A model generated the notes under the pieces. The model was given only the letters and a program-made list of their open reading frames with translations. It did no database searches and was not told where the DNA came from. A stretch of 45,409 bases of DNA from an uncultured Hyphomonas sp. (GTDB lineage Bacteria > Pseudomonadota > Alphaproteobacteria > Caulobacterales > Hyphomonadaceae): positions 1-45,409 of the forward strand of contig CAYUFN010000003.1 of NCBI GenBank assembly GCA_964443965.1, read 5' to 3'. A program made the position numbers and the translations under genes. Every line of letters starts with the position of its first letter. Positions within the stretch are counted from its first letter, which is position 1. Positions 6,235 to 44,120 of this stretch are shown in pieces.

Positions 6235-7254
6235 TTAGCGCCTGACAATCGAGCGTACGGGCGGCGTGAATTCATTCCAATCAAACTCAGTTAGTCGAAA
6301 CGCCCAGCCTTCCGCTTTTGTGTTGATCGTCTCAGCTCGCCGTGCGCCTTCACCTGCCTCGACAGCGCGTAAAGTTATGTAAAAGCCTTCAGGTTCACGG
6401 TAGGTGGAAACGTCTACTTCTAAGCCATCATGTGTTGATGTAATGTGACGCCCGACACGGCGCGTTTCAAGTGCGCTGGCAGGTTTGACATCGATTGGGG
6501 CAAGCCGGCTTAGCGCAAGCGCAGGACCTGAAGTCGTCAAACGGCTGATCAACTGGTCTGATTCATATGGAGGAGCAGGACGAAAAGCGCGCGCGCCTGC
6601 TCCAGGCTCCCGGCTGAGGTAAAGGCTCTCGCCACGTGCATCAGTAATGCGCACCGCCCCAATTACGTCTGTGGCCATATCAACAATATTGAGGTCGAGC
6701 CATGCTTCGCGCGTATAGAGCGGAGGGAGATCGCCAACAAGTCGAAAAGCGGTTGTTTCATCGGGACGACGTGCATACAGACGATCTTCGCGCCTGCCTG
6801 TGATAAGTGAGCTTATCACGGTGTCATCTTGGGCAATGACTTCAATATAGGCACCATTCCCGCCATTGGATGGATCCCCAAGGCCGATTAGCTTTAGCTT
6901 AGCGGGATCTGTTGTGCGTTTGGCACCCCATTCAAGACTGATTAAGCCCTCTGCCAGAGCAGCTAGACGATCTGGGCGCACTGGATAATTTCCAGATTCA
7001 ATCATGCCCCAGTCCTTGCCGCCTACTTGCCTGCGTTTGAGCGTATAAGAGCTATCGCCTAGACGCACGCGGATGATTTTTGCCTTGTCAATTGTTTGGC
7101 TCAGGCGCGGGAAAACAAAATGGCCTGTGCGTGGGCTACCATTATATTTTGCATGATTTGATAAGTTAAAGACACTCAATATAAAGAGACTAATCGTTGC
7201 AATGCTCAATCCCAGCAAAATGGCCTTGCGTTTGCCCTTGCGTATCTGGTTCAT
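6235..7254 (-). CDS. DUF4340-like membrane-anchored protein, last gene of the ABC/GldG-like operon
   Basis: 339-aa ORF with an N-terminal TM anchor (KAILLGLSIATISLFILSVF). It has a 4-nt overlap with the upstream GldG-like gene. Position and size match the DUF4340 partner usually found after GldG-like genes; family assigned by context and by eye. Confidence 0.65.
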   Translation of the reverse strand: MNQIRKGKRKAILLGLSIATISLFILSVFNLSNHAKYNGSPRTGHFVFPRLSQTIDKAKIIRVRLGDSSYTLKRRQVGGKDWGMIESGNYPVRPDRLAALAEGLISLEWGAKRTTDPAKLKLIGLGDPSNGGNGAYIEVIAQDDTVISSLITGRREDRLYARRPDETTAFRLVGDLPPLYTREAWLDLNIVDMATDVIGAVRITDARGESLYLSREPGAGARAFRPAPPYESDQLISRLTTSGPALALSRLAPIDVKPASALETRRVGRHITSTHDGLEVDVSTYREPEGFYITLRAVEAGEGARRAETINTKAEGWAFRLTEFDWNEFTPPVRSIVRR

Positions 7255-9134
7255 GTTTGTAACCTCTTTTTGCGCAACCAGATAAAGAAGCCAAGTAATA
7301 CAACAATTAATGGCCCGCCCCAGATATTCAGTAGGCGAAGTGTATTTTCTAGCCCATCAATCTCGCGGCGAAAATCTCTCTCAATGGCGCGTAAACGTTC
7401 GCGTGTTTCAAGAACGCTTTGGCGGAGTTCCCCAAGCTCTTGACGTTCTTCAGGGGTGAGGTCTGCATCAAGGTCTCCAGAGAAGAAACCGCCTGTCGCG
7501 CCAATTGTTTGCAATTCTTCTAGCCGACTCTGCGCCTGATCCAGTCTGTTTTCCAAGCGGGCCTGCTCATCAAAAAATTCATTCTGCGCCTTCTCCCTCA
7601 TGGCTTCAACACGAACCATTGGTCGCAGGTTGGGCGCGCGCGAGCGTAGTTGCAAAAGGTCGCTCCCGCCTGTCAGATTGTCCAGTGCATTCATAATAAA
7701 AGTTGCATTCTCCGCATATGGTGATCCTGAGCGGTGGTCGATATGGAAGGCATCATCGAGCATATCTGTATCTGCCAGAACAATGATTTCTGCCGGTTGA
7801 TTGCTAAGGTTGCGGTGCGGGCCTGCAGATTCACCCGAAAGACGAGCAAGCTCAGCGGCAACGGGATCACCGGCTTGGCTGATTGGTGGCCCAGATGGAA
7901 AAGCGGTCGTCAGGTTTCCTGATAATCTCGCTGCTAAGATCAAAGATGATTCAAGCGCGGAGTAAGCTTGCAAGACATCTTTTGGTGGCGCGTTCTGAAG
8001 CGCCAGATCTGGTGTGATGTAAGATGGTGATACGCTTGTAAAAAGTAGAGGGGTTGAAACGATTCCCGCTTTATCAAAAATCTTTAGTGCACCTGCCGCA
8101 CCTAAGTTTACAGTCAGGGACAATGGTGCGGTAATGGTATCTTCGAGGGCCATTGATCCGCGAGAAACCCCAATGAAAAGAGGCTGAGGGGCCTCGATTG
8201 TGCGGCCGTCCTCGGTGGTTGTAACGGTTAATGCGTTGCTGGCATCAGCAGCGACGTTTTCTTCAAGAGTGATGCCCCAAGCATCGCCAAGAATACCTAA
8301 GTCAGAGCGGGTATTTTGTCTGCCTGTACCGAAAATGCCACTTGCCTGTGCAATTGTTGAGGCAGGGTCGACTAGAATGAGGGCGCGACCTTTTTCAAGA
8401 ATGAATTGATCAATCAGGTAGGTCTGGCTTTCGGTAATGTTTGGCGCATGTGCGATGAGCAGGGCGTCAATTTCACTGGGAATGCTGGTAAAGTCGTCCT
8501 GAAGCGTTACGATGTTATATAAAGCAGCTATTTCACGCAGGATAAAGTAACCACCACTCTGTCCGTCTCCCTCCATATTAGGTAATTCAGTAATAATGCC
8601 GATCGTGGCAGGCTCAGGATTATCCAGACGTGCAACCAGACGAGTTAGGTCATATTCAAGTGTGGATTCACGCTCAGGCGCTAAAAAGGGGATGACAAGC
8701 TCATCATCAACAGCATTTCTGCCAATCAGACCAAAATACAGCGGGTCAGTCCCATCTGTAGCAACGGCAGTTATGCCTGCTGCCAAGGCTTGATCTTCAT
8801 CAATAGAGAATGGCGTTGGATCAATTTCAGCTAAGCGCAGATTTGCGCCGCCGAGGCCCTCATACGATTGAAGGACTTCTCTGACACGTTGCGCATAAGC
8901 CCGCACTGCCGGATAATCCTGGCCGACGCGGCGGGTATATACCAGTGTCAGGTCAATTGGTTCAGAGAGTTTCTGAAGCGTGGTTCTTGTTCCCTGACTT
9001 AATGTGAATTGCTTATTCTGTGTAAAGTCAATCCTCGCGCCTGCCGACAAAGACTGGACCAGTGTGTTAATGAGCAAAAAGATTATTAAGATCAGAGTGC
9101 TGATAGCAGGGATAAAAAAGCGATCAAACATCAT
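7251..9134 (-). CDS. GldG-like ABC-transporter auxiliary protein (ABC-type uncharacterized transport system)
   Basis: N-terminal TM segment, large extracytoplasmic body, C-terminal coiled-coil-like stretch (EKAQNEFFDEQARLENRLDQAQSRLEELQ) and a final TM segment (IWGGPLIVVLLGFFIWL). Start set at the ATG at 9134 (MMFDRFF...), which abuts the permease TGA, rather than the track start at 9179. Confidence 0.75.
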   Translation of the reverse strand: MMFDRFFIPAISTLILIIFLLINTLVQSLSAGARIDFTQNKQFTLSQGTRTTLQKLSEPIDLTLVYTRRVGQDYPAVRAYAQRVREVLQSYEGLGGANLRLAEIDPTPFSIDEDQALAAGITAVATDGTDPLYFGLIGRNAVDDELVIPFLAPERESTLEYDLTRLVARLDNPEPATIGIITELPNMEGDGQSGGYFILREIAALYNIVTLQDDFTSIPSEIDALLIAHAPNITESQTYLIDQFILEKGRALILVDPASTIAQASGIFGTGRQNTRSDLGILGDAWGITLEENVAADASNALTVTTTEDGRTIEAPQPLFIGVSRGSMALEDTITAPLSLTVNLGAAGALKIFDKAGIVSTPLLFTSVSPSYITPDLALQNAPPKDVLQAYSALESSLILAARLSGNLTTAFPSGPPISQAGDPVAAELARLSGESAGPHRNLSNQPAEIIVLADTDMLDDAFHIDHRSGSPYAENATFIMNALDNLTGGSDLLQLRSRAPNLRPMVRVEAMREKAQNEFFDEQARLENRLDQAQSRLEELQTIGATGGFFSGDLDADLTPEERQELGELRQSVLETRERLRAIERDFRREIDGLENTLRLLNIWGGPLIVVLLGFFIWLRKKRLQT

Positions 9135-9907
9135 CAACCTCGCCTGCGCGCGGCCCACAAGCCACCCAACAGAGACCAAAGCGCAATAAAGCCCAGAAAA
9201 TAAATGAGGGTGCGTAGTTCCAAAACGCCACGCTGAGCTGTCTCAAAGTGTGTCATAAAAGATAGCTGAGCGATTTGCTCTGCGATGAGTGGACCGAACG
9301 CATCACCAACGCCTGCCAGTACCAGCGGCCATCCTGCAACTGTGAACAGGAAGGCAATTGTAACTGAAATAACAAAGGCCGTGACTTGAGACTGCGTTAA
9401 GGCTGAAACAGCAGCACCAAGCGAAAGATAACAGCCAGCCATCAAAAAGCTCATGAAGTAAGCCAGTGCGATAGCTGCATTGTCGGCAGGCCCCAGATAG
9501 TTGACGCTAATCCACATCGGAAATGTCAGCACGAGCGTGACACCTGCAACTGTCCATGCAGCAAGGAGTTTCCCCAACATGATGCCACCAAGACCTACTG
9601 GGAGTGAAAAAAGCAGCTCGTCGGTTCCGCTGTTTTGTTCATCAGACCATAGCCGCATTGCAAGCGCGGGTAAGAAGATCATATACAACCAGGGGTGCCA
9701 GATGAAAAAGGGCGTTAAATCAGCACGGGCTGTATCGAAAAACCGGCCAACCTCCCAAGTAAATACGCCGATCGCCAAGAGGAATACGGCCATAAAAATG
9801 TAGGCCATTGGCGTGGTGAAATAGGTGTTGACTTCGCGTTTGTAGACAGCGGTAAAACCGGTAAACAAGTTGCTAATCTGTGTGTTTAGAGAAGACTTAT
9901 TTGTCAT
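9134..9907 (-). CDS. ABC-2 type transporter permease
   Basis: 257-aa polytopic hydrophobic ORF (about 6 TM segments). It has a 4-nt overlap with the upstream ATPase gene. Confidence 0.85.
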   Translation of the reverse strand: MTNKSSLNTQISNLFTGFTAVYKREVNTYFTTPMAYIFMAVFLLAIGVFTWEVGRFFDTARADLTPFFIWHPWLYMIFLPALAMRLWSDEQNSGTDELLFSLPVGLGGIMLGKLLAAWTVAGVTLVLTFPMWISVNYLGPADNAAIALAYFMSFLMAGCYLSLGAAVSALTQSQVTAFVISVTIAFLFTVAGWPLVLAGVGDAFGPLIAEQIAQLSFMTHFETAQRGVLELRTLIYFLGFIALWSLLGGLWAARRRG

Positions 9908-10638
9908 ACGGTTAGTCTCTCATTCGGGTTTGTTAACTCGCTAAAAACGCTCTCAAGGCCCCCATTATCAGCGGCTGAGGCCGCAAGCGCTTTTGGCGTG
10001 TCGTCAGCAACAATGCGTCCCCGGTCGATGATCGCCACGCGCGAGCACATCGCTGGCACTTCTTCGAGTGTATGTGTTGTAATGAGAATTGCTTTTTCTG
10101 CGGCCATACGCGTAATCAAGGCACGCACGGCGCGCTTCTGATTAGGGTCCAAGCCATCTGTTGGTTCATCCAGGAGCAAAACAGGTGGGTCTGTAAGGAT
10201 AGCCCCAGCAAGACCAACTCTCCTGCGAAACCCTTTAGAGAGCTCCCCGATGCGTTTGCCTGTGACTGCGCCAATGCGCGCATCAGCAGTTACACGTTCA
10301 ACGGCATTCTTACAGTCTTTGCTGCTTAAACCTCTGGCGCGCGCCAAGAACTGCAAGAAACCGGGCGGTGTCATGTCTTCATAGAGGGGTGCGCCTTCGG
10401 GCAGATACCCCAGCGCGCTTTGAGCAGCCCGGCGATGATACGTAATCGAGTGGCCGTTGATCAGTGCATCGCCGTCATCAGGTGTTAGGACGCCTGCAAT
10501 CATGCGAATCGTCGTGGATTTACCTGCACCGTTAGGCCCTAGAAACCCCAATACATCCCCTTTGTTGAGAGTAAGAGAAATCTTGTCCACAGCGCGTGTG
10601 CCGCCAAAACTTTTCGTTAGACCAGCCAGTTCAAGCAT
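9904..10638 (-). CDS. ABC transporter ATP-binding protein
   Basis: Walker A GPNGAGKST, Q-loop, signature LSKGFRRR and Walker B LLLDEPTDGLD. First gene of a four-gene operon. Confidence 0.93.
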   Translation of the reverse strand: MLELAGLTKSFGGTRAVDKISLTLNKGDVLGFLGPNGAGKSTTIRMIAGVLTPDDGDALINGHSITYHRRAAQSALGYLPEGAPLYEDMTPPGFLQFLARARGLSSKDCKNAVERVTADARIGAVTGKRIGELSKGFRRRVGLAGAILTDPPVLLLDEPTDGLDPNQKRAVRALITRMAAEKAILITTHTLEEVPAMCSRVAIIDRGRIVADDTPKALAASAADNGGLESVFSELTNPNERLTV

Positions 10639-14175: not shown

Positions 14176-14265
14176 GGTGAGGTGGCCGAGTGGTCGAAGG
14201 CGCACGCCTGGAAAGTGTGTAGGCAGGCAACTGTCTCCAGGGTTCGAATCCCTGTCTCACCGCCA
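14176..14265 (+). tRNA. tRNA-Ser (anticodon GGA)
   Basis: GGTGAGG acceptor stem pairs with CCTCACC, followed by a discriminator G and encoded CCA. The anticodon stem CACGC/GTGTG carries loop CTGGAAA. There is a long variable arm, and the T-arm is GGTTCGAATCC. Confidence 0.95.
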
Positions 14266-14415: not shown

Positions 14416-14898
14416 ATGTTACGCTCAGCTCTTTTAGCAACCATCATGTTTGGTTCTGCCTATACGCCTGCTTTTGCACAGGAATTTACGGCAGTCTCAA
14501 CGATTGAACGGATGGTAACCACCGAAAATGCCGATGGAAGTGTTTCAGTAGAATTTCTGAAGGCCGAACGGGTAACCCCAGGGGAAAACCTCTATTATCA
14601 GCTCATTTACAACAATGCATCATCGGAGAATATCGAGGATGCAAGCCTGGTCATGAATGTGCCGCCAGAAGTGACTTATTCTGAAAATAGTGCAGAGATT
14701 GCAGGTAAAGACGTTCAGGTGTCCTTTTCAACTGATGGCGGACAGACATATGCTCCCCGAGGCGAGCTGAAAGTAACAATTGGCGGCCAGCCCCGCGCAG
14801 CAGTTTCTGAAGATATTACAAATATACGCTGGACCTTTAACGAGCCAATTGCGCCAGAAACAGAAGGCTCAGTGGGGTTTACAGCGATCGTTCGTTAA
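14416..14898 (+). CDS. small secreted single-domain DUF11-like protein (P1)
   Basis: Signal peptide MLRSALLATIMFGSAYTPAFA|QE and a GGAGA Shine-Dalgarno 5 nt upstream. PGENLYYQLIYNNASSENIEDASLVMNVPPEVTY fits the DUF11/TIGR01451 repeat pattern (PGd.v.Y.i...N.g...a.nv.v.d.lP.gl.y). Confidence 0.75.
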   Translation: MLRSALLATIMFGSAYTPAFAQEFTAVSTIERMVTTENADGSVSVEFLKAERVTPGENLYYQLIYNNASSENIEDASLVMNVPPEVTYSENSAEIAGKDVQVSFSTDGGQTYAPRGELKVTIGGQPRAAVSEDITNIRWTFNEPIAPETEGSVGFTAIVR

Positions 14899-14926
14899 CG
14901 CTGTAATCTACCGATTCTATTACACA

Positions 14927-14953
14927 AATGCGGGTCCCATTGGGGCCCGCATT
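14927..14953 (+). terminator. strong stem-loop after P1 (terminator or attenuating hairpin)
   Basis: AATGCGGGTCCC / GGGGCCCGCATT forms a 12-bp stem (one G-U pair) 29 nt after the stop codon. The downstream T-tract is weak (CATATTT). Confidence 0.55.
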
Positions 14954-15083
14954 CATATTTACATTAACACTTGTTTTTAATGCTTTTTTTGCCAGATAGC
15001 GTGGTTTTTCTTGGTTAAATTAGCCGCATTTTAAGCTTTTTTAGGTACTCACAGCGGGTAGATTAGTCTGGAGAGGCCACACA

Positions 15084-16388
15084 ATGCTAGAAATAACAAA
15101 CCGCGCACACATGCCGCGCTCAATCAGAATGTTAACTGCGCTAGGGGCTGTAATGGCCTTTGCTGGCGCTGCACACGCTCAAGGCACCGATGCTGGACGC
15201 ACGGTTTCAAACACATTTACGCTGGACTACAGCGTCAACGATACACCTCAACCGCCAATCACTAATGAAGGGGGTGTACCTGGTGCGCCAGATGGCCCGA
15301 CCGTCTTCACCGTAGATCGGCTTATTGACTTGACCTTGACTGAAACCAATTCACCTCAACTTGTCGCGCCTGGGACACTTATTGCCGTTGATGGCGGCGG
15401 TGCATTGACATCCGATCCTGATCTTCAGCCGACTGTGCTGTCATACACTGTGACGAATACGGGTAACGACAATCAAGCTTATTCATTCGATATCTCAAGC
15501 CCAACTGGTACTTTTGCTGCAACCGGCTTTCGTATCTTTTACGAGGACGCTGCAGGTAATTTTGTAGAGCTTGCGGAGGTGGCTGCTGGATCTGGAGCGA
15601 CAACTCAAGTTACCGAAGACATTCCAGCTGGCGAAACGCGTAATATTTTTGTCCTTGCCGATATTCCTGCTGGTGCGAACAATAATGAGTTCGACGACAT
15701 TATCCTAACGGCTGAAACACGCGATCCAGAGTTTTGGGCGTTTGAGGGCCAGTTCACCACAGGGTTCAATCCTGATGGCACGGTCAATACGACGCCAGTC
15801 GCAGCACCTTCGCCGAATGCAACAGCTGGTGAAACAACAGGAAACGATGCTGGTGGCGCAAACGACCTCGTCAACGCCGCACAAAACGTCTTTGCTGATG
15901 GATCTGGTACAGCTGATGGAGACGCGGACGGTTTGTTCTCCGATACTGCGCAATACATCATTGCGGCACCAAATCTAACAGGTGTCAAAACGGTTGCCGT
16001 TATTGCAACAGACGGTGCGGCGATTACCTGTGGTGATTTCAGTGTAGCTGCTGTTTCTCCAAACGAGTTCACCACACCGGGTGCTTGTGTTGAATACACA
16101 ATTACAGTCACAAATAATGGTGCTGATGATGGCGCTGGGAACCCGCTACCTGCAGCGTCTGTTCTGGCAACTGGTATTGACGTTGTCGATATCTTGCCAC
16201 CGGAGCTTACATTCCTAAGTGCGCAGGCTCTTGGCTTTACTGTGGCGCCTACAGCTGATGCTCCGCCAACTGCAAATACTGTCTGTGATGGTACTGCTGG
16301 AACATGCCGTGTCGCATTTATCGATGGCGAACTAGCAGCTGATCCAGCTGCGCCCGGAGCAGTTGTTATAAGGGCACTCGTTCAGTAA
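15084..16388 (+). CDS. secreted protein with C-terminal DUF11-like domain (P2)
   Basis: Signal peptide ...LTALGAVMAFAGAAHA|QG and a GGAGAGG Shine-Dalgarno 7 nt upstream. The C-terminal module PGACVEYTITVTNNGADDG...VVDILPPELTFLS is DUF11-like. The protein is Thr/Ala/Gly/Asp-rich with paired cysteines. Confidence 0.8.
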   Translation: MLEITNRAHMPRSIRMLTALGAVMAFAGAAHAQGTDAGRTVSNTFTLDYSVNDTPQPPITNEGGVPGAPDGPTVFTVDRLIDLTLTETNSPQLVAPGTLIAVDGGGALTSDPDLQPTVLSYTVTNTGNDNQAYSFDISSPTGTFAATGFRIFYEDAAGNFVELAEVAAGSGATTQVTEDIPAGETRNIFVLADIPAGANNNEFDDIILTAETRDPEFWAFEGQFTTGFNPDGTVNTTPVAAPSPNATAGETTGNDAGGANDLVNAAQNVFADGSGTADGDADGLFSDTAQYIIAAPNLTGVKTVAVIATDGAAITCGDFSVAAVSPNEFTTPGACVEYTITVTNNGADDGAGNPLPAASVLATGIDVVDILPPELTFLSAQALGFTVAPTADAPPTANTVCDGTAGTCRVAFIDGELAADPAAPGAVVIRALVQ

Positions 16389-16417
16389 TCTGAATATAAA
16401 ATAACACTATTAAAAAC

Positions 16418-16458
16418 AAGGCTCTCGCGCTGTAAAAAGTGCGGGAGCCTTATCATTT
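16418..16458 (+). terminator. rho-independent terminator after P2
   Basis: AAGGCTCTCGC / GCGGGAGCCTT forms an 11-bp stem with a 12-nt loop, followed by ATCATTTT. Confidence 0.65.
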
Positions 16459-16578
16459 TCAAGGGCTTTCTAAGCGGATTGTTAACTCTGTTGAGGTATG
16501 ATCTGTACAAGTTGCGAGTAGTCGAAAACGGCACCGCTGAATAAAGCGCCCAAAGAGGCGCGGGTTGATGAATGGGTT

Positions 16579-19500
16579 ATGATGATGGGCTTCCTCCCAA
16601 ATCTCATACGTGTATGGTGCGTAATGTTATGTGCGATGGTCTGGATGCCAATCGCACCCGTGCACGCTCAGCCAGCTACTGGCACTGAGATTCGAAATAC
16701 CGCAACGGTCTCATTTAATCAGGGCGCAGGGCGTCTGACCCTTACAACAAATGAAGTTGTCCTGGTGCTTGAAGCAGCGCGCACAGCATCCACAATTGAA
16801 TTTTTCCGCTTCGCCCCAAACTCAGATGTCGGCATTACGACGATGATCAATGGAAGTCAGTTTAGCCCATTGGGAGACCTGAACGGGCCTTTTATAGGTA
16901 TCGGCCCGCCAATATCCTCTAACGGACTTTTACTTGATCTTTCCGGCCCTGTGACCCTTACATCAGCGACACGCTATTTGGCTGGTGAGCTGATGTTCAT
17001 CCGTGTTCAAGACCCAGGCCAAAATAGCTCTCCGTCAATTATTGAAACTTTGACTGTTCGCGTTACTGCAAGCACAGGCGATGAAATCGTCTTGCAGTTA
17101 TTTGAATCTGGCCCCGATACAGGTGAGTTCTTTGCTTATATTCCATCTTCGCCCGACCCTACAGAGCTAAATGATAATACATTATCTACACCAGACAACA
17201 CACAACTGACCGCAACTTATGCGGATTCCTTTGATGCTAGCGATATTTCGATAGATACCGCTATTATTGATCCGTTTAGTCGAGTATTTGATAGTATTAC
17301 CGGCGAGCTTCTCAATAATGTTCGGGTCACGATTGTGGACTTGGATACTGGGCAGCCGGCAGATGTCTGGGGTGTGGCCGGTGTATCCAGTTTCCCGTCA
17401 ACTGTTGAGACAGGGACAATTGCGATTGATAGCGGCGGCCTGCAATATCCGCTTGGGCCTGGTGAGTTTGTCTTTCCTGTCTTGGAAGAAGGCAATTATG
17501 AGCTGCAACTCGCGACCCCGGAAGGCTATGTCTTTGCCTCCATTCTTACAAATGGGCCGTTTGATACCCTCGATAACGCACCATTCAGGGTTATTCCGGG
17601 CTCATTTGGGGAAAGTTTTCGTGTTGAGGAACTTGGACCTTTAAACTTTGATGTGCCCCTTGACGGCGTAGGTGAGCTTGTTGTGACAAAAGAGGCGGCC
17701 ACCAGCGTTGGCGCTGTGGGTGACTTTGTTCCCTATACCGTAAATATTGAGAACAGAAATGAAGCTGCGGTTGTTTTGCGGGTGCGAGATGTTTTACCAC
17801 AAGGCTTGCGCTATCAGGAGGGAACGGCGCGACTTGATGGAGTATCTATTTCGGATCCAGATATATCGCTCGATGGATCTACACTTACGTTCGATGGAGG
17901 CGTGATAAGATCGGCTGAGTCTGCTGCGCTGACCTATGTTGCGTTAGTGTCTGCTGGCACGCCTTTAGGTGAGGCTGTGAACGAGGCTTTTGCCCTTGAT
18001 GGAGCAGGGAATACAATTTCCAATCGCGCAGAGGCGGCAATTATTATTCAAGAAGATTTATTGCGGTCAACGCTGACCATCATCGGGCGTGTGGCTGAGG
18101 ATGCCTGCCGCCCAGACCAGGAGTGGGCGCGTGATATTGAGAATGGTATCGGCGTTGGAGGTGTTCGCCTCTACCTGGAAACTGGCGATTATGTTGTGAC
18201 AGATGAAGATGGCCTCTATCATTTTGAGAACGTGCTGCCAGGCACGCATGTCGTGCAAGTTGATGAAGAAACACTACCAAAAGGTTATGAGCCAGTTATC
18301 TGCGAAGAAAATACGCAGTATGCAGGCAGCGCGATCTCTAAATTTGTAGATGCGACAGGTGGGACGATCTGGCGGGCAAACTTCTATCTGGAGCGCACAG
18401 GAGATTTGGAGGTCGAAGAGATTGATGAGCAATTCAGCGATGGCCTGGAATATCTTGAATTTGACGATACCTGGCTTGATGAACAAGATGACGCTGTTGA
18501 ATGGGTGTATCCTGACACAACTCGCACGCCCTCTACGCTGAGTGTCAATATCGGTATCAAGCATGGCGCTTTTGATCGCGTAAAAATGACACTTAACGGC
18601 CAGCCTGTACCAAGCTTAAATTTTGGTGGGACTGACACGTCGTCGAACCGTCAAGTTGCGATAAGTAGGTGGCGTGGGCTGGATATCCTTAAAGGACGCA
18701 ACATTGTTAAGGCTGTTGTTGAAGATCAATTTGGAAATGTGCGCACCGAACTAAGTAAAGATATAAGATTTATATCTGAGGTCGAAAGCGCTACTCTGGT
18801 TGATGATCAATCAAGACTTGTGGCTGATGGGCGAACAAATCCTGTTATTGCGGTACGCTTAACAAACTCAGCTGGCCGTGCGGTTCATGCTGGTCGTCAG
18901 GTAAATATAGACCTTGCGCCGCCATATCGCCTGCAAAGTACTGAAAACTTTGAAGGGCAGGCGGCTGTGGACGCTGCATTGTCAACCACAGCGAGCGTCG
19001 AGGTTGGGCCTGATGGGATCGCATATGTCCAGCTGGCTCCAACTCTGGAGACTGGCAAGGCGCGCCTGTTCGTCACGCTGGATAATGCACCACAAGAGGA
19101 AATTGAAGTCTTCTTGCGCCCTGAGAAACGCGACTGGATTCTCGTTGGCCTCGCTGAAGGCTCTCTTGGGTTAGAACGCCTTGATGGACCAGGTACGATT
19201 GACGCGAACGATCTTCTCAATGAAGGGCGCCTGGCCTTCTTTGCCAAAGGTGTGATCAAGGGTGACTGGCTGCTGACGCTGGCTGTGGATACAGCCAAGC
19301 GTCGCGGGGATGCCGATGGGGATCTTTTTGGAGGCCAAATTGATCCAAATGCATTCTATACCCTCTATGGCGACCGAACTTTCCAGGATAAAGAAGCTGA
19401 GAGTCGTTACCCGCTTTACGTCAAGCTGGAGAAGGGAACGTTCCAGGTCTTGTTTGGCGACTATGATACTGATTTGAATGATACCCAACTTGGTCGTTAT

Positions 19501-21657
19501 AATCGCCGCTTATCCGGTTTGCGTTCAGTTTATGAAGGGGATAATGTTTCGTTCTCTGCATTCGCGGCTGAAACCAATCAGGGTTTCCAGCGCCAAGAAA
19601 TTGCAGCTGATGGAACATCTGGAACCTTCACTTTAGATGCTGCGCCTCTTATCAGAAATTCGGAGACAATTACTGTCGAAACACGTGATCGTTTCCGTCC
19701 TGATATTGTTGTTAGCACTTTAAATCTTGCGCGATTTGTCGATTACGATATCGATTTCAACACTGGAGAGATTATCTTCCGTCGCCCAATCGCGGCGACA
19801 GATGCTAGCTTCAATCCGAATGTGATTGTTGCCGAGTATGAGACCTCAGCTGCTGTTGAACGTAATATCATTGCCGGTGGACGGGTGGCTGTGCGCGCAT
19901 TGGACGATCGTATTGAGGTTGGCGCGACCTACATTCGGGAAGAGGGGAGTGACACTGTTAGTGATGCTGTTAGTCAGTTAGCTGGTGTTGATCTAACCAT
20001 ACAGATCGATAGCAAAACTGAGCTGCATGCAGAATATGCTGTCACTAAAAATGATAGCGCGGTTCAGGCGACCGGCGAGCCAAACGAGGCGGATGCTTTA
20101 TTGGTCGAAGTAATCCGGCGCCAGGAGGCTTTAACTGTGGGTGCCTATTACCGCGAAGATGAAGCAGGCTTTGGTCTTGGGCAGCAATCTTCTGCAACGA
20201 CAGGAGGCGTGCGTCGATTTGGTGCGACGGTTAGCGCTGAAATTGGCAAGGAGCGCAGCGAGGAGTCTACGCGCCGGGCCAGACATTATGTTGAAGCTGA
20301 AGCTTATCGCGAAGAAAGCCTGCAAACCGGTGATACGCGAAATGTGATTGAGGGCGCGTTGCGCAGAGATGGACCCCTGCTCAATGCCAGCATTGGTTTG
20401 CGCACGATCGAAGAAGACTTTGAAGCCTTGGAAGATGGTGCGCGCCGTTCAACTTTGATTACGAGTTCTGTCAACAAGAACTTTGCAAAGTGGGGGCTGA
20501 ACCTTTCAGCAAGTCATGAGCAACCGCTTGGGGGTGAGGATGAGTCAACCAGCTTCCCGCAACGTACAATTCTCGGCGTTGATAAGACGATTACGAAAAA
20601 GGCAACGCTTAACGTTCGCCACGAAATTCTTGATGGCGATAACGCTGATGGGAATAACACAGCGATTGGTGTAACAGTTCAGCCATTCAACGGCACCACC
20701 GTGACAGCCGCTGCTGACCTTATTACGCAAGATAGCGCGCGCCGTATTGGGGCAACTGTTGGGGTTGATCAGGTTATCCGTATCAATGAGAATTGGTCAG
20801 CAGGTATAGGCGTCGCGCGGCGTGCGAATATTTCTGATACAGGCACACCACTTGATGTTCTGCCTGATGCTGCACTCTCGCCTTTAGAAACGGCGCCAGC
20901 TAGCCCGTTAACACAGACGAATGCATTCACATCTGCCTATCTTGGTCTGGGCTATACGGGCGAAAAGACTGCGGCAGCGACACGTTATGAAATTCGTGAC
21001 AGTGCGCTTGGTACCCGTCACGCAGCAACCTTCGGGGCAGCCAGAGAAGCCAATGATGTGCTCTCTTATGCCTTGGCCAGCAGGCTTGAGGCCAATAATG
21101 CTGACGAGGCGAATGATACATTGCGCTTTGATTCGCGCCTTGGTCTGGCTTATCGCCCGCGTGCCAATAATGGGCCTGTGATCTTCAACCGATTTGATGC
21201 CTCATATAACCGCGTGACAGGGCAATCTGAGACTTTCAAGCTGGTCAATAATTTTGCGATCAATAGCTATATTGGTAAGCGGACCCAATTGACGGCTTTT
21301 CACGGGTTCAAATACAATAAATCAAACTTCCTTGGTGACTCATTTGACTCTGTCACCAACCTGATTGGTGGTGAAGTGCGCTATGATGTGACGAGAAAAA
21401 TTGATCTTGGTTTATCTGGCTCAGCATTGATTTCCGATAGTGGGCAGACCGATTATCAAATCGGCCCTTCTGTAGGGTTTTCACCAGTAGAGAACACCTG
21501 GTTAACTCTCGGTTGGAATGTAAAAGGCTTTAATGACAATGACTTCGAAGCTGCTGAATTTACGCGTGACGGACCATTTATTAAGCTCCGGGTAAAGTTT
21601 GACCAACATACTGCGCGCGGGCTGCTGGATAGAATTTCTCCCCGCGGTCGTAATTGA
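16579..21657 (+). CDS. giant secreted protein with N-terminal Ig-like/CnaB-like/DUF11 modules and a ~830-aa C-terminal predicted outer-membrane beta-barrel (P3)
   Basis: 1692-aa uninterrupted ORF with signal peptide ...[11 protein letters not shown] DUF11-like module covers aa ~365-485 ([33 protein letters not shown]). CarboxypepD_reg/CnaB-like motifs include [34 protein letters not shown]. A Big_1-like module is [23 protein letters not shown]. The C-terminal part is dominated by short amphipathic strands and ends near [10 protein letters not shown]. Confidence 0.85.
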   Translation: [1692 protein letters not shown]

Positions 21658-21686
21658 TAAGTCGGCATGTGCGCTGAGGGGTATAA

Positions 21687-24600
21687 TTGGGCAATAGGGC
21701 AGACATAAGATCGCTTTGTTATGCGAAGCTTTTTAAGGGGGCGAGGCAGGCAGCAATTATTTTGCTGGCGGGCTTCTTTGCGCTGACGGCGTCTGCCCAG
21801 ACGGTGACATACTCTGAGAACTTTACCGCCGGCGTTGCGAATGATCCGGGCAGTCCCCAAGTCGATAATTGGGAAGCCTTTCGGGACGGTCTTACGGCGA
21901 CATATACAAATATCACCGTTGGTGGTTCGCAAGGGCCTGATGTTTCCTGTTCAGATCCGGCTGCGATTGCTGCGATTACGACAGCCCTGAATACAGATGC
22001 GACCGCCTCGGTACCTTGTGATGGCAGAACATGGAATGTGGGAACATGTATCGGAACCAACGAGCTCTCAATTGATGTTGGGGTTTGTACATGTCAGGGG
22101 GCGAGCCCTTTTACCTTGCGCCCGGATGTTGATGCAGGGAATGCAGCGTGGGGAGGGATCGGTGCAACGTGTGGCCCCGGCGCTTCGGGTGCAGGCTCGA
22201 ATGTGGACCAAACACTAACTGTCTCCGTTACCGAGCCTGCAAGCATCCCTGATCTTTCACTGTCTATTGCACCAGCGAGTTTGTCTCCCTCGGTAGGCGC
22301 GAACACATTTCTTGACATTCTTCTTGATAATAGCGGTTTAACCGCTGCAACTGGCGTGGAGGTCTCTGCGTTGTTGCCGTCGGGCTTAACGTTTGTGTCT
22401 GATGATTCTACGGGTGCTTACAATCCATCGACGGGCATCTGGAGTGTTGGGAACGCGGCATCTGGGAGCACGCAGCGCTTACGGCTTCTTGTGAACGTTG
22501 CGCCAGCAGGAAGCTATACAATGAATGCAGAGGTCACCGCTGCGAATGAGGTTGATTTCGATTCAACTCCTGGGAACGCTGCTACAGCCCCCGGAGAAGA
22601 TGATAGTGATGTTGTCACATTAACGCCAGTCACGCCGCCACCGCCACTTTTCTGTCTCGGTCGTCCGATACAGCCACTTGTATTTACCGATCCAGTTGTT
22701 GAAAGCCCCGGCGCGAGCATTGCTGCGCCACAAGTTGGTGATGTTTTCCGCTTTCCTGAGGTTTCGCCTGGTGTTGATGCGCTTGTTGAAGTAGCAGCTT
22801 TTAATAATGGCGCAAGCTTGGCTGGAATTGATAATGATGGAACGGCGATTGCCCCCATTGGGGTGCCTGATAACTTTCAGCCGACATTGGTTGGCCCTGC
22901 TGGGGACGTATCAGTTGATTTTCAAATCACGATTGTTGCGACCGGTACCAGCATTCCCGGGACGCTCGATTTTGCGGGCAGTGCGATTGATGTAGATGGC
23001 GATAGTGGAAGCTTACGCGAATACATTGAAGTTTCGAACAACATTGTTGAATTTGCGCTAAATGGCGTCATTTTTGATGATCCGGCAGATCCCGCTGATG
23101 TTCCTGATGATACGCGTTTGATCACGCAAGCCAACTCACCGCCAGACCCGACAGCTTCAGCCCCATCATCTGCTGCTCGCATAAGATTTGAGGCTGAGAC
23201 CGTCGATACGGCGGCGAGCATCAATCCGGATGAGCCAAGAAATATTGCTGCGGCTTTCTTTACCGATGTCTCTGTATTTGAATACAGGATAGGTAAATTC
23301 GGAGGGGCCACGACGGGGCGCTTAAATTCCCTGGCATTTAATTGTCCAGCCATTGATCCAGGTGCCGGAGGGAGCTCACCAGTCTTGGAAGAAGACTTTG
23401 GTGATGCCCCCTTTGATGCGGTCACGAACCCAGGGTACGGGAACCCGATTCACGTCATTGATCCAGCAGCGCCAACCGTTCAAATAGGGGCTTTGAATAC
23501 AGGTGAAACTGAAGCTGGAAACAGTGCAACCGCCTCATCAGATGCAGGTGATGACGGTGTTACAATCGGTGGCTTAAGCTTGCAGGGGCAAACTCTTCAA
23601 GGGCTGGCCCCGGCAACAATATCTGTTGCTGTTACCAATGCGTCGGCTGATCCAGGTTTGCTGCAGGTCTTTATTGATTGGAATATCGATGGAGATTTTG
23701 ATGATGCGGGCGAGCATGTGGTCGTCGATGAGCAAGATGCTGATGATGATGGGCTTATCACGCTGAACATTACCCCGCCCGCTACTACGGTTGCCGGTAC
23801 GAGTTTTGCTCGCTTCCGTTGGGCAACCAGTGCGGTTGATGTACAGGAGGCTGTTGCTGATGGTGAGGTTGAGGACTACCAGATTGTATTGCTCGCTGCG
23901 CCGCCTGCAGACCTGAACCTAACGCTAACTGCATCAAATGTGGCGCCTGTCCCGGGTGAAACAATCAGCTTGACGGTAACGATTAATAATGAAGGTCCTA
24001 GCACTGCAAGCGGGATTACCACAACAATCCCTTTACCTGCCGGCCTGACCTTCGTTTCCAGCGATGCTGGCGCAAACTATGATGAGACAACAGGTCTTTG
24101 GGTTGTGCCAGGTGATTTGGCAAATGGTGATAATATAATTTTGACGATACAGGCGACGGCTGTCGCGCTTGGAACGAGTAACCTTTTGGCGGAGATCACC
24201 ACAGCTTCGCCTAGCGATCCGGACTCAACGCCAGGAAATGCTGGTACCGTACCGGCCGAAGATGATACGGATACAGAAACAATTACTGTTGTGTCCAGTC
24301 CGCCTGTCTGTCCAGCAGGATTGAATCTGTCTGCGACCGGAGGAACGGCAGTTAGCGTTACATCGGAAACGGGTATCGATAATGCAAACTTTGCGCTTGG
24401 GGCGCTTTCCTCAGCAGGTACCGCGCCACCTGATCCGACCGCTGCTCTCCTGAATCTGAGCGGCAGTAGCGTTCTCGTGCTTGATCTGGGTGTAGTTGTA
24501 CCTGAAAATGCGCTTTTAACATTTTCGCTCGCACGGGACGATGATGTCGCCGTTAATAACACTATGCTGGAAATTCGTGGGTCTCTTGATGCGTCTGCAT

Positions 24601-25238
24601 TTCCTGATGTGTTTGGCGTTTACAGCACAGGATCAACGACTGGATTTATCGCAAACGCGCCGCAAAATACAATTGAGCATATTACTGTTGCTGTGCCATC
24701 GGGCGGTCTGCAGTTCTTACAGTTCGATATTTTGACTGGTGATAATGCTTTCGTAGATGGGATAAGCTTTACTCAGTCCTGTGTGCCAGGTGCAGAGCTT
24801 GAAGGCGTGAAAACTGTCGAAGTTTTTGATCCGCTGGGTGAGGGCTTGTTTGCGCTACCTGGAAATGATGTGACCTATACGATCACTATTAGTAACATTG
24901 GTGGCGGGGATACAGATGATGATAGTATTTTCCTGATTGATGAGCTGCCGCCTGAAGTCGTGTTCTTTAATGGTGACGCAGATGGTCCGGGACCTGGCCT
25001 GGATCCTGTAAATTTTGCAGAACTAACGGCCACAGGGCTAGACCCATTCGTGTTTAATGACAGTGTGCGCTTTGCAGGTGTTGGATCGGCCCCAGCGGAT
25101 TTTGATGCTTGTGGCTTAGTGCCCCAACCTGGATATGATCCAGATGTTCGGTATGTCTGTTTTAATCCTCAGGGGATGATGCAAGCAGGAGACCCGGACC
25201 CGAGTTTTGCGCTCTCTTTCCGGGTGCGTATCCAGTAA
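21687..25238 (+). CDS. large secreted multidomain protein with a Cys-rich N-domain, three DUF11-like modules and a GEVED-motif domain (P4)
   Basis: 1183-aa ORF starting at TTG 21687, with a GAGGGG Shine-Dalgarno 5 nt upstream, 30 nt after the P3 stop. Signal peptide ...FFALTASA|QT. DUF11-like modules lie at aa ~188-315, ~740-869 and ~1035-1183. The stretch DFGDAP...FARFRW...GEVEDY (aa ~567-735) is the GEVED-domain signature. Confidence 0.85.
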   Translation: MGNRADIRSLCYAKLFKGARQAAIILLAGFFALTASAQTVTYSENFTAGVANDPGSPQVDNWEAFRDGLTATYTNITVGGSQGPDVSCSDPAAIAAITTALNTDATASVPCDGRTWNVGTCIGTNELSIDVGVCTCQGASPFTLRPDVDAGNAAWGGIGATCGPGASGAGSNVDQTLTVSVTEPASIPDLSLSIAPASLSPSVGANTFLDILLDNSGLTAATGVEVSALLPSGLTFVSDDSTGAYNPSTGIWSVGNAASGSTQRLRLLVNVAPAGSYTMNAEVTAANEVDFDSTPGNAATAPGEDDSDVVTLTPVTPPPPLFCLGRPIQPLVFTDPVVESPGASIAAPQVGDVFRFPEVSPGVDALVEVAAFNNGASLAGIDNDGTAIAPIGVPDNFQPTLVGPAGDVSVDFQITIVATGTSIPGTLDFAGSAIDVDGDSGSLREYIEVSNNIVEFALNGVIFDDPADPADVPDDTRLITQANSPPDPTASAPSSAARIRFEAETVDTAASINPDEPRNIAAAFFTDVSVFEYRIGKFGGATTGRLNSLAFNCPAIDPGAGGSSPVLEEDFGDAPFDAVTNPGYGNPIHVIDPAAPTVQIGALNTGETEAGNSATASSDAGDDGVTIGGLSLQGQTLQGLAPATISVAVTNASADPGLLQVFIDWNIDGDFDDAGEHVVVDEQDADDDGLITLNITPPATTVAGTSFARFRWATSAVDVQEAVADGEVEDYQIVLLAAPPADLNLTLTASNVAPVPGETISLTVTINNEGPSTASGITTTIPLPAGLTFVSSDAGANYDETTGLWVVPGDLANGDNIILTIQATAVALGTSNLLAEITTASPSDPDSTPGNAGTVPAEDDTDTETITVVSSPPVCPAGLNLSATGGTAVSVTSETGIDNANFALGALSSAGTAPPDPTAALLNLSGSSVLVLDLGVVVPENALLTFSLARDDDVAVNNTMLEIRGSLDASAFPDVFGVYSTGSTTGFIANAPQNTIEHITVAVPSGGLQFLQFDILTGDNAFVDGISFTQSCVPGAELEGVKTVEVFDPLGEGLFALPGNDVTYTITISNIGGGDTDDDSIFLIDELPPEVVFFNGDADGPGPGLDPVNFAELTATGLDPFVFNDSVRFAGVGSAPADFDACGLVPQPGYDPDVRYVCFNPQGMMQAGDPDPSFALSFRVRIQ

Positions 25239-30717: not shown

Positions 30718-32109
30718 ATGTATTTTCGACAAAATGATGAGGGTAATGTTGCAATGATGATTGCTTTATCATTGCTGCCAATCATGATGCTGATTGTTTT
30801 GGCCGTTGAATTTAGTCGTCAGCAGGTCAATGAAAGAGAAGCGTCAGCATCCCTGGATGCAACAGTCCTTGCCGTTGCGATTGAACAGGCTCGAAATGGC
30901 GGTACTGCCGCTGACTTACAGACTTATGCGCAGGCTTACTTCGATAGCAATATTCCTGCGCAGGCAGGCGTAACGTATGAGCCACTTGCATTATCGATGA
31001 CTGGTGACCAGGAAATTACATTAGAATTGGTCGGCCGTATGCCTTCAGCAATGCTTGGAATATTCGGCGCCGAAAAGTTGGAATATTTTCTGGAAACATC
31101 TGCTGTTGCAGGCGATCCACCAGAGCTGGAGATAATGCTCGTTGTTGATGTGTCAAATTCCATGTCCGGTCCGCGGATTACTGCATTGCGTAATGCGGTG
31201 GATGCAATGGTTGATGAAGTGATTGACCCTGAAAATGAACTTATTCGCGTAGGGATGGTACCCTTCAATAATTACGTCAACGTTGGTGTTTCTAACAGAA
31301 ATGCCTCATGGCTAGATGCACCAGATGATAGAGTAACAGAAGTTGAAAGCTGCCCGATAGATTTCACCGCATCAGAAGGTGCAGGGTGTAGCTTTCGAAC
31401 AGTTTGCACTCAGGATGGACAGTTTGGAAACGGCAGCGAAGGCTGTGTCACGGAAACATCATGCTCATCTGGGGGAGACCCTATCATGCAGCCTTGCACA
31501 ACCATAGAGATTGAACGATCTTGGCTTGGCTGTGTCGGGTCTAGAGAGGCCCCCTTGAATATCACCGATAACGATTTCGCCAGCAACCCAGTTCCAGGTA
31601 TTAATTCGCGTTCAAATCAGGAATGCCAAGATGGAAATGAAATCCTGCCATTAACACATGAAGCTTCAGATATTAAATCAGCAGCAGCACAATTAGAGCC
31701 CAACGGGTTCACTTACATAGCGCCAGGAATTGTTTGGGGTCTTAGGGCGCTATCACAGGATGCTCCGTTTGACACAGCTAAAATTGGTAACCCTAAAGAT
31801 GGACAGATCATGATTGTTCTTTCTGATGGTGCCAATACACGCTCAAAGAACATAGATGGTGTTCGCCACGAGGGAAGTGATCTTGCGGCTGCTAATTTGG
31901 ATACGCTTGCTGCTTGCGATGAGGCGAAGGATGCCAAGGTTGAAGTTTTTACAATTGATTTTGGTATCAGTGACCCAGTGACCGAAGCCTTGCTAAGGGA
32001 TTGCGCGACAAGCCCTGAGCATGCATTTGAAGCTGATACGGCAAACCAACTTGTCTCGGTATTTCGCGCGATCTCCGGACAGTTCAGCGAAGTGAGACTC
32101 TCCAACTAA
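30718..32109 (+). CDS. TadG/TadE-like N-terminal domain protein with vWA domain
   Basis: N-terminus EGNVAMMIALSLLPIMMLIVLAVEFSR is typical of TadG-like pseudopilin-type proteins. LVVDVSNSMSG is a vWA MIDAS (DxSxS) motif. A Cys-rich insert lies between the vWA halves. Confidence 0.8.
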   Translation: MYFRQNDEGNVAMMIALSLLPIMMLIVLAVEFSRQQVNEREASASLDATVLAVAIEQARNGGTAADLQTYAQAYFDSNIPAQAGVTYEPLALSMTGDQEITLELVGRMPSAMLGIFGAEKLEYFLETSAVAGDPPELEIMLVVDVSNSMSGPRITALRNAVDAMVDEVIDPENELIRVGMVPFNNYVNVGVSNRNASWLDAPDDRVTEVESCPIDFTASEGAGCSFRTVCTQDGQFGNGSEGCVTETSCSSGGDPIMQPCTTIEIERSWLGCVGSREAPLNITDNDFASNPVPGINSRSNQECQDGNEILPLTHEASDIKSAAAQLEPNGFTYIAPGIVWGLRALSQDAPFDTAKIGNPKDGQIMIVLSDGANTRSKNIDGVRHEGSDLAAANLDTLAACDEAKDAKVEVFTIDFGISDPVTEALLRDCATSPEHAFEADTANQLVSVFRAISGQFSEVRLSN

Positions 32110-41820: not shown

Positions 41821-41823
41821 CGA

Positions 41824-44082: not shown

Positions 44083-44120
44083 AGCAGCGCGTTTAGCGGC
44101 TTTCAGGCAGGGCTGACAAG

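Follow-up and report, generated by a model that had tools for sequence, protein, structure and literature searches.

Four co-oriented genes (P1 to P4) between a tRNA-Ser gene and trpF in the genome of an uncultured Hyphomonas sp. (contig CAYUFN010000003.1; the whole stretch of DNA analysed here, 45,409 nucleotides long, is called the window) very probably encode a conserved and undescribed system for a surface adhesin or fibre with an outer-membrane anchor. Our more specific proposal, which we judge evenly balanced, is that the locus specifies a self-contained, Sec-dependent, modular surface fibre (that is, a fibrillar adhesin). The pieces of this fibre would be joined in trans through a CLIPPER domain (PF01345, formerly DUF11) split between proteins—a mechanism suggested by residue conservation and with about equal chances of being right or wrong—and, somewhat less probably, each joint would be locked by a covalent Lys–Asn bond. 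Even with non-covalent joints or joints formed in cis, the conserved combination of barrel and adhesin would be an undescribed envelope system. The four genes, whose coding reality is supported by full-length homologues at 46–89% identity, lie exactly where an earlier sequence-only reading of the window had placed them:

14416-14898, forward strand: P1, open reading frame (ORF) of 160 amino acids (aa); one CLIPPER-like domain, putatively exported, that lacks both a donor strand and the conserved Lys and Asp
15084-16388, forward strand: P2, ORF of 434 aa; signal peptide to AHA↓QG
16579-21657, forward strand: P3, ORF of 1692 aa; signal peptide, donor strands, immunoglobulin (Ig)-like stalk and predicted giant C-terminal beta-barrel module
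21687-25238, forward strand: P4, ORF of 1183 aa; variable adhesin-like protein with a Cys-rich N terminus, CLIPPERs at residues 189-299 and 741-852, a GEVED domain at 659-733 and a C-terminal acceptor

All four proteins begin with putative signal peptides with AxA↓Q cleavage (AFA↓QE, AHA↓QG, VHA↓QP and ASA↓QT for P1 to P4; judged by eye and identical to the sites previously claimed), and a reading of these peptides found no lipobox Cys. Together with Cys pairs that are conserved in the P2 family, the signal peptides fit an extracytoplasmic location. PF01345 (gathering cut-off, 24.6 bits) scored above its cut-off in P2 (25.4 bits), P3 (31.4 bits) and P4 (137.5 bits). The DUF11-like domain that the sequence-only reading had seen at the end of P2 was recovered by Pfam at residues 319-386, and the three DUF11-like modules and GEVED domain that it had seen in P4 were all found: two modules by Pfam (both complete domains that have lost Lys and Asp), together with GEVED, and the third, C-terminal one by a DUF11 hidden Markov model (HMM) built in this analysis (E 9e-11). 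Its description of P1 as a single DUF11-like domain held for our own HMM (E 8e-16); in Pfam and NCBIfam (TIGR01451, E 0.018) P1 stayed below threshold, and we call it weakly DUF11-like.

A CLIPPER domain divided between N and C termini

In the CLIPPER structure 9IFR, an intramolecular isopeptide bond connects Lys715 of the first strand to Asn806 of the last strand, with the catalytic Asp748 in a 'D.LP' motif (PMC12617251). The triad occupies positions K8, D42 and N93 of our DUF11 HMM, and N11, K270 and D337 of the P2 family correspond to these canonical positions. All three belong to the 23 invariant columns of that family (n = 71; mean column identity, 33%), in which the triad is split: N11 falls in the first strand of the mature protein (VSNTFTLDY), K270 and D337 in the C-terminal domain. 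Segments that carry the Asn are referred to as donor strands and those that carry Lys and Asp as acceptors:

15180-15320, forward strand: P2 donor strands, mature residues 1-47, QGTDAGRTVSNTFTLDYSV...PTVFTVDR, with the invariant Asn N11
15966-16385, forward strand: P2 acceptor, a CLIPPER with invariant Lys (GVKTVAV) and Asp (VDILPPE) that ends in ...VVIRALVQ at the stop codon, before the Asn strand
16669-16782, forward strand: P3 donor strands, QPATGTEIRNTATVSFNQGAGRLTLTTNEVVLVLE, with an Asn that is at least 90% conserved among homologues
24789-25235, forward strand: P4 acceptor, CLIPPER-like, with Lys (EGVKTVEV) and Asp (LIDELPPE), ending in ...SFALSFRVRIQ at the stop codon without an Asn strand

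The invariant columns of the P2 donor are A5, V9, N11, F13, L15, T41, F43, V45 and D46. Lys and Asp were identified by eye and pattern search in the acceptors of 15 of 16 P2-like and all 11 P4-like proteins, all of which end one strand before the Asn strand. The P4-like sequences were taken from the loci described below (a homologue search with the 149-aa P4 acceptor gave four close matches); nine of the 11 contain the exact A-strand pattern, and P4 of the window and L014_978 were assigned by eye. A donor start of the form 'G..I.N.A...Y/F', followed by a second strand, is present in nearly all P2-like and P3-like proteins of the cassettes; the pattern is missed by the 527-aa and 2772-aa genes of one contig (L013), both of which have doubtful starts. 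The motif was found within the first 110 residues of 84 of 124 distant full-length P3-like proteins, compared with 16 of 496 background windows.

Alignments across the prospective junctions point in the same direction. The C-terminal domain of P2 alone covers positions 2-58 of the 114 positions of Pfam DUF11; when followed by the N-terminal strand of P2 it covers 2-102 and when followed by that of P3 it covers 2-98 (35.6 bits), whereas in reversed-strand controls coverage stays at 2-58/59. In hhalign comparisons with the complete CLIPPERs internal to P3, the alignment grows from 45 to 101 columns across the junction (reversed control, 44). At the level of whole proteins, P4-like proteins contain a Lys/Asp acceptor and no donor, and P3-like proteins contain a donor, their sole recognised CLIPPER being already complete. 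Donors (the P2s and P3) and acceptors (the P2s and P4, possibly P1) can be arranged as a linear chain, tip ← P2(n) ← P3. From its sequence, the set looks like an ancestral tandem-CLIPPER adhesin that was cut within its domains into separately exported pieces.

Several results weigh against this proposal. Appending a strand raises the Pfam DUF11 score modestly, by 0.2 bits with the strand of P2 itself and by 4.7 bits with that of P3; for the P4 acceptor the rise is about 3 bits, and the alignment does not become longer. With our own DUF11 HMM, the native P2 strand and its reversed form had about equal scores, and long insertions broke the alignment; an N-terminal strand on its own gave no significant hhalign alignment to CLIPPER. 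P1 has no conserved Lys or Asp, and where it fits in the model is guesswork. Finally, AlphaFold2 predicts a compact P2 monomer whose N terminus is ordered, which fits packing in cis equally well.

The weak rise in HMM scores and the compact P2 monomer, confident to its N terminus, also speak for an alternative that we consider unlikely, in which the locus encodes a surface adhesin whose parts form neither a covalent nor a strand-swapped chain. P2 would then use its N-terminal strands to complete its own C-terminal domain in cis (a discontinuous or circularly permuted CLIPPER), the N-terminal strand of P3 would serve its own first domain, and P1, P2 and P4 would be cargo of, or docked on, the P3 barrel in an arrangement that resembles two-partner or translocon–cargo systems. 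On Rhizobiales plasmids, a giant CLIPPER_2 adhesin is paired with a 1260-aa protein of the barrel family and no donor motif is present, which means that this family can serve an adhesin without split domains. Three features are at odds with completion in cis: in P4-like proteins, Lys and Asp are retained by a terminal domain for which the same protein offers no Asn strand, the conserved Asn strand of P3-like proteins has no acceptor in cis, and the numbers of donors and acceptors suit a linear chain in every cassette. Joining in trans is favoured by these three features and by the loss of Lys and Asp from the internal CLIPPERs of P4, whereas the strand-less terminal one retains both.

P2, with both a donor and an acceptor, is a candidate linker or shaft subunit. 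Its AlphaFold2 model (predicted local distance difference test (pLDDT), 92.9; predicted template-modelling score (pTM), 0.83) is all-beta and gave only generic tandem Ig-like matches in Foldseek. A pilin relationship of P2 was considered and dropped; the matches were integrin legs and donor-strand-complemented chaperone–usher pilin fusions at low template-modelling (TM) scores, which is no evidence for it. P1 shows a conserved C-terminal half ('T(H/N)IRW...G.VSFRA.V(R/K)' up to the stop codon) and might, as a guess, be a cap or tip subunit or a chaperone-like partner. For P4, a single-sequence search of the PDB returned noise only, and a search with its first CLIPPER returned spurious armadillo-repeat matches and missed 9IFR. 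No known adhesin anchor was found in P4; the last element of P1, P2 and P4 is in each case a beta-strand, without an LPXTG motif or a hydrophobic stretch behind it, and Pfam and NCBIfam detected no Por_secre_tail or CHU_C C-terminal domain in any of the three.

Conservation of the cassette and its setting in the window

A contig scan with single proteins reached close Hyphomonadaceae relatives only, and distant loci were found through contigs that encode homologues. About ten cassettes share the order [P2-like, one or two copies][P1-like, ~160 aa][giant P3-like], mostly with a large CLIPPER protein before or after, and a P1-like gene of ~160 aa occurs in all complete cassettes examined. Orthologues of P1 to P4 are thus syntenic rather than scattered. 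In Hyphomonadaceae metagenome-assembled genomes (MAGs), P1, P2 and P3 share one chromosomal site; P4 is missing in two of these loci (L001 and L007), in which trpF directly follows P3, and is shortened in two others (L003 and L004). In the four-gene set of the sequence-only reading, P4 is an optional and variable member, and this adhesive head appears to be the fast-evolving, dispensable part.

Outside Hyphomonadaceae, the cassette occurs in unrelated neighbourhoods. Homologues of all four proteins are detectable on a contig that is marine gammaproteobacterial by gene context (L009), including a 194-aa gene that matches P1 at 1.8e-22. The cassette was also found in a Pseudomonadales MAG (L012), on plasmids of Acinetobacter haemolyticus (L014) and of the cyanobacterium Picosynechococcus (L017), and on three further contigs (L018, L019 and L020). 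One MAG locus (L013:2599-28319) has two complete cassettes in tandem, with genes of 1248, 164, 527, 408 and 2772 aa followed by genes of 913, 162, 405 and at least 1554 aa, which suggests duplication and diversification of the whole system in one genome. The heads of the large CLIPPER proteins vary (GEVED in P4, an L-type lectin in L019 (E 2.7e-41)); variable heads, together with the loss of P4 in some relatives, fit an exchangeable tip. The presence of the cassette in marine Alphaproteobacteria and Gammaproteobacteria, in which it is common, and on plasmids of Acinetobacter and cyanobacteria means that it may matter for particle attachment and biofilm formation.

On the Acinetobacter plasmid (p4), the giant barrel gene and the large CLIPPER gene flank a gene (L014:14602-15684) for an OmpA-domain protein of 360 aa, which has a possible lipobox (LLSAC). 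Considering that OmpA domains are fused into some P3-like proteins and separately encoded in Acinetobacter, a peptidoglycan tether may belong to the system, as this distribution suggests.

A two-gene system was observed on plasmids of Nitratireductor (L015:1381-10748) and Sinorhizobium meliloti (L016:1-10757). A gene for a giant CLIPPER_2 protein (DUF7507 ×13) overlaps stop to start, in translational coupling, with the gene for an outer-membrane protein of ~1260 aa, which PGAP labels 'TonB-dependent receptor' or hypothetical, which has no Pfam match and which is homologous to residues ~21-370 of the P3 barrel module. We rejected this pair as an instance of the same system, given the lack of a donor motif, the different C terminus of the adhesin and the fact that only part of the barrel is common to both; Pfam did not bear out our guess that the adhesin has an OmpA-like end. 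Partial matches to the barrel module occur on ~20 further plasmids, mostly alphaproteobacterial.

Within the window, the locus has the following borders and hairpins, the latter at the two places where hairpins had been noted from the sequence:

14176-14265: tRNA-Ser(GGA), one border of the four-gene locus
14927-14953, forward strand: hairpin after P1, 12 bp, G+C-rich, terminator- or attenuator-like (−23.1 kcal/mol, z −4.1)
16418-16451, forward strand: hairpin after P2, 14 bp with a T-rich tail, intrinsic-terminator-like (−26 kcal/mol, z −4.7)

The stability of the hairpin after P1 was matched by none of 200 shuffled sequences, and the folding scan found no stable hairpin after P3 or P4. P4 starts at a TTG codon 30 nt past the P3 stop codon, with a Shine–Dalgarno-like stretch (GAGGGG) upstream, and is followed by trpF-trpB-trpA, the other border of the locus. 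The flanking genes are housekeeping genes; a Pfam scan of P1 to P4 and 20 flanking ORFs detected no chaperone, sortase, secretin or type I or type IX secretion system gene, in agreement with the absence of assembly genes that had been claimed. The G+C content of the locus (0.49–0.52) equals that of its surroundings and the site is conserved in relatives; horizontal acquisition beside the tRNA-Ser gene was therefore rejected, and the core locus is regarded as resident.

Other genes of the window were recorded as side observations. A GldAFG-like operon on the reverse strand at 6235-10638 (ABC ATPase, ABC-2 permease, GldG-like protein with ABC_transp_aux and DUF7088, and DUF4340 protein) lies, in this alphaproteobacterium, 4–8 kb upstream of P1 to P4 and on the opposite strand; no GldAFG-like genes occur in the gene lists of cassette loci L009, L012, L013 and L018-L020. 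Between folC and a uracil-DNA glycosylase gene, an orphan gene at 30718-32109 (forward strand) encodes a TadE/G-like protein that contains a von Willebrand A domain, and no further tad genes were found in the window. The region 35164-45023 (reverse strand) contains ordinary housekeeping genes: an AddA/AddB-type helicase–nuclease pair, an NTP-transferase and a phosphotransferase (AmgK/MurU-like) and a XerC/D-type recombinase.

The C-terminal module of P3

P3 combines the donor strands with further Ig-like domains and a module of its own:

17671-17994, forward strand: internal CLIPPER of P3, complete, with triad VVTKEA / VRDVLPQG / AVNEAFAL (Pfam DUF11 at residues 367-471)
19066-21654, forward strand: C-terminal module of P3, ~860 aa (residues 830-1692), predicted giant outer-membrane barrel of ~38 strands

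The Lys, Asp and Asn columns of the internal CLIPPER are nearly invariant in the family alignment, and through this domain the P3 family profile matched the CLIPPER crystal structure 9IFR (E 1.2e-8). Pfam also detected an SdrD_B/CarboxypepD_reg-like domain at residues 521-573, and the domain beside the barrel resembles bacterial Ig group 1 by eye.

Residues 830-1692 have no Pfam (E < 0.1) or NCBIfam match, and neither the single sequence nor a 59-sequence family profile gave a PDB sequence match to them; the sole structure that the profile found was 9IFR, through the internal CLIPPER. AlphaFold2 modelling from the family alignment (pLDDT 75, pTM 0.63) predicts ~38 long antiparallel strands, with a small beta domain inserted after the first ~7 strands (module residues ~181-250). 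In Foldseek searches of the PDB, the only matches were SlpA, MtrB, LptD, SprA, FimD and TonB-dependent transporters, at probability 1.0 and TM ~0.2; the best match was SlpA (E 3e-9, TM 0.23), and SprA reached TM 0.17. In the model, the fold class is clearly that of a large outer-membrane barrel, as had been proposed from the appearance of the strands, and not of soluble repeats, and the module is without a specific relative among solved barrels. The last strand (GPFIKLRVKF) resembles the beta-signal of outer-membrane proteins and is conserved across the family. A tail of ~20 residues (DQ.TA.GLL.RISP; 21595-21654), predicted to be helical, follows ...LRVKF in P3 and its relatives; the usual end of an outer-membrane protein is its terminal aromatic residue.

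An exhaustive HMMER scan found the module in 2920 representative clusters (50% identity) at E ≤ 1e-3, of which 1125 were at E ≤ 1e-30. In nearly all of the best 150 of the 2920 matches the module lies at or near the C terminus, and most of the proteins have 1600–3000 aa. The N-terminal regions of P3-like proteins span ~800 to more than 2100 residues and include cadherin and CLIPPER domains, and some contain one to three OmpA peptidoglycan-binding domains between stalk and barrel. Pfam found no OmpA domain in the P3 of the window. The variable length and the isopeptide-stabilised CLIPPER of the P3 stalk and the cadherin domains of relatives argue for an extracellular location, and the OmpA insertions argue that the segment beside the barrel stays periplasmic. 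Two points count against our proposal here: a single closed barrel and its strand count are derived from DSSP, pTM and Foldseek, and, given OmpA domains N-terminal to the barrel in relatives, the N-terminal region could be partly or wholly periplasmic.

The position of the inserted beta domain recalls the plug of an usher, and FimD is among the Foldseek matches. Both observations would suit a chaperone-free, usher-like pilus of which P1 is the polymerising major subunit, P3 the usher-like pore, P2 the adaptor and P4 the tip adhesin, as would the properties of P1, which is pilin-sized (~140 aa when mature), stands first in the locus ahead of a strong hairpin, as do major-pilin genes, and has a counterpart in every complete cassette examined. 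We nevertheless consider a P1 pilus improbable, given that P1 has neither a donor motif nor the conserved Lys and Asp, that P3 has no sequence or profile similarity to ushers (TM ~0.2) and that no PapD-like chaperone was found in the window.

The leading Foldseek match, SlpA of Deinococcus, and the relatives with OmpA domains before the barrel or a neighbouring OmpA-domain protein raise a further prospect, equally improbable in our view: P3 could be a structural tether between outer membrane and peptidoglycan or the base of a surface layer, its Ig-like region being periplasmic and P1, P2 and P4 being envelope proteins. This is difficult to reconcile with a TM score of just 0.23, with the lectin or GEVED heads of P4-like proteins, with the absence of an OmpA domain from the window's P3 and with N-terminal regions of ~800 to more than 2100 residues, whose cadherin and isopeptide CLIPPER domains are typical of extracellular stalks and which, estimated from the number of domains, we take to be too long for the periplasm. 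Nutrient uptake by a very large TonB-dependent or SusC-like P3 with a carboxypeptidase-regulatory-like domain and the surface binders P1, P2 and P4 is very improbable, and the lack of plug and TonB-box signatures largely refutes it: the CarboxypepD_reg/SdrD_B match at 521-573, the PGAP label 'TonB-dependent receptor' on some partial homologues and the TonB-dependent transporters among the Foldseek matches stand against the absence of any Plug or TonB_dep_Rec match in Pfam (E < 0.1), of any TonB-dependent transporter in the PDB profile search and of a lipobox in P1, P2 and P4.

Proposed assembly and comparison with known systems

In the assembly that we propose, P1, P2, P3 and P4 would be exported by Sec, and the ~860-residue barrel of P3 would be inserted into the outer membrane, probably by the beta-barrel assembly machinery (BAM), with its N-terminal ~800 residues forming an Ig-like stalk that may reach the surface. 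P2 would dock on the N-terminal strand of P3, and P4 or P1 on that of P2, with the N-terminal strand of the proximal piece entering the incomplete CLIPPER of the distal one and completing its fold (donor-strand complementation, in the direction known from chaperone–usher pili). This would set the donor Asn beside the Lys and the catalytic Asp, and a spontaneous intermolecular isopeptide bond could lock each joint. The resulting chain would be P4 (or P1) ← P2 (one or more copies) ← P3, in which P4 is a variable adhesive head, P2 a linker or shaft, P3 the base and P1 perhaps a small cap, an alternative tip or a chaperone-like factor. The barrel of P3 would anchor the fibre and perhaps export it; the cassette encodes no other candidate for an outer-membrane conduit, and folded Ig-like domains would fit through a barrel of this size. 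The likeness to a pilus operon, with which the sequence-only reading began, thereby gains a concrete candidate mechanism in the split CLIPPER, which we offer as a model. As a tentative generalization, diderms of at least two phyla may possess a chaperone- and sortase-free fibre pathway in which split-CLIPPER modules lock themselves together and barrels of ~36–38 strands serve export and anchoring.

The system of P1 to P4 fits no known assembly pathway. As the sequence-only reading had it, neither P3 nor the gene set belongs to a characterised secretion or pilus family by Pfam, NCBIfam, PDB sequence searches or Foldseek, and the claimed lack of a functional description is borne out in the literature searched, which yielded no account of the cassette, a split or intermolecular CLIPPER or the giant-barrel family. 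If the model is true, the system would form a new class beside the chaperone–usher, type IV, curli, type V and Tad fibres of Gram-negative bacteria, with covalent joints. Such joints are known from the sortase-assembled pili of Gram-positive bacteria and are also described for BsaA fibres and archaeal threads. It would also define a large uncatalogued family of giant barrels (the 2920 clusters above).

Chaperone–usher pili (type 1, P and Csu/CupE) resemble the proposed fibre in their Sec-exported Ig-like subunits, whose incomplete fold is completed by the N-terminal strand of the proximal neighbour, as would be the case here. Further likenesses are a tip adhesin without a donor strand (P4), a large barrel with an inserted small beta domain and the hairpins after the small subunit genes P1 and P2. 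The differences are equally evident. No PapD_N or PapD_C domain was found by Pfam in P1 to P4 or the 20 flanking ORFs scanned, and P3 is without usher similarity, given that its C terminus has no Pfam match to the usher family (PF00577; E < 0.1) and that FimD and PapC are absent from the PDB profile matches. The barrel is fused to a stalk, and usher barrels have 24 strands compared with the ~38 predicted in P3. What the acceptors lack is the final pair of strands of a CnaA-like CLIPPER, which includes the isopeptide Asn, and the joints are predicted to be covalent. Type V (Bacteroidia) pili are made from lipoprotein precursors that have a lipobox Cys and are processed by a protease; such a Cys is absent from the signal peptides of P1 to P4, and Pfam detected no type V pilin match in them.

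The exchange-and-lock mechanism of BsaA (TasA family, Clostridium perfringens) and the archaeal threads are similar at the level of mechanism only: an N-terminal strand is inserted, an intermolecular Lys–Asn bond locks the joint and no sortase takes part, each of which would apply here as well (there is no sortase gene in the window). The fold is CLIPPER/DUF11 and not TasA/camelysin-like or that of the threads (Pfam found no Peptidase_M73/TasA match in P1 to P4), and the triad is K-D-N rather than N-E-K. BsaA and the threads form homopolymers with no barrel anchor, whereas the chain here would be hetero-modular. They occur in organisms that have no outer membrane.

Known CLIPPER/DUF11 adhesins (B9T28_05395 of Acinetobacter silvestris, 9IFR, and the CshA-type NR2–GEVED proteins) share the PF01345 domain with P2, P3 and P4, GEVED with P4, and a logic of head, stalk and anchor. 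In fibrillar adhesins, GEVED always follows a CshA_NR2-type adhesive domain (PMC10952558). Each of those adhesins is one polypeptide, with isopeptide bonds inside the molecule and an OmpA-like, CHU_C, Por_secre_tail or LPXTG anchor; here, by contrast, the adhesin is spread over three to four genes, different proteins carry the parts of the triad and an uncatalogued giant barrel would be the anchor. If this is true, the attachment of many CLIPPER, GEVED or lectin adhesins without a known anchor would be explained.

In joining a barrel to an Ig-like stalk, and in the peptidoglycan-binding domains of some of its relatives, P3 is comparable to autotransporters and inverse autotransporters (types Va and Ve), which have 12-strand barrels. 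Its predicted barrel is ~3 times larger, Pfam and NCBIfam detected no autotransporter or intimin-type beta domain in P3, and both the order stalk–OmpA–barrel of the relatives and the extra subunit genes are without counterpart in those families.

A parallel for the division of the domain itself is offered by SpyTag/SpyCatcher and other engineered split isopeptide domains, laboratory constructs made from CnaB/CnaA domains of Gram-positive proteins, in which a strand with a reactive residue is separate from the isopeptide domain and the bond is restored in trans, as we propose for the P2, P3 and P4 proteins. Unlike in those constructs, the split described here would be natural and conserved and would serve assembly; if so, the cassettes would contain natural split-isopeptide pairs with inbuilt partner specificity that could be used as protein-ligation tools.

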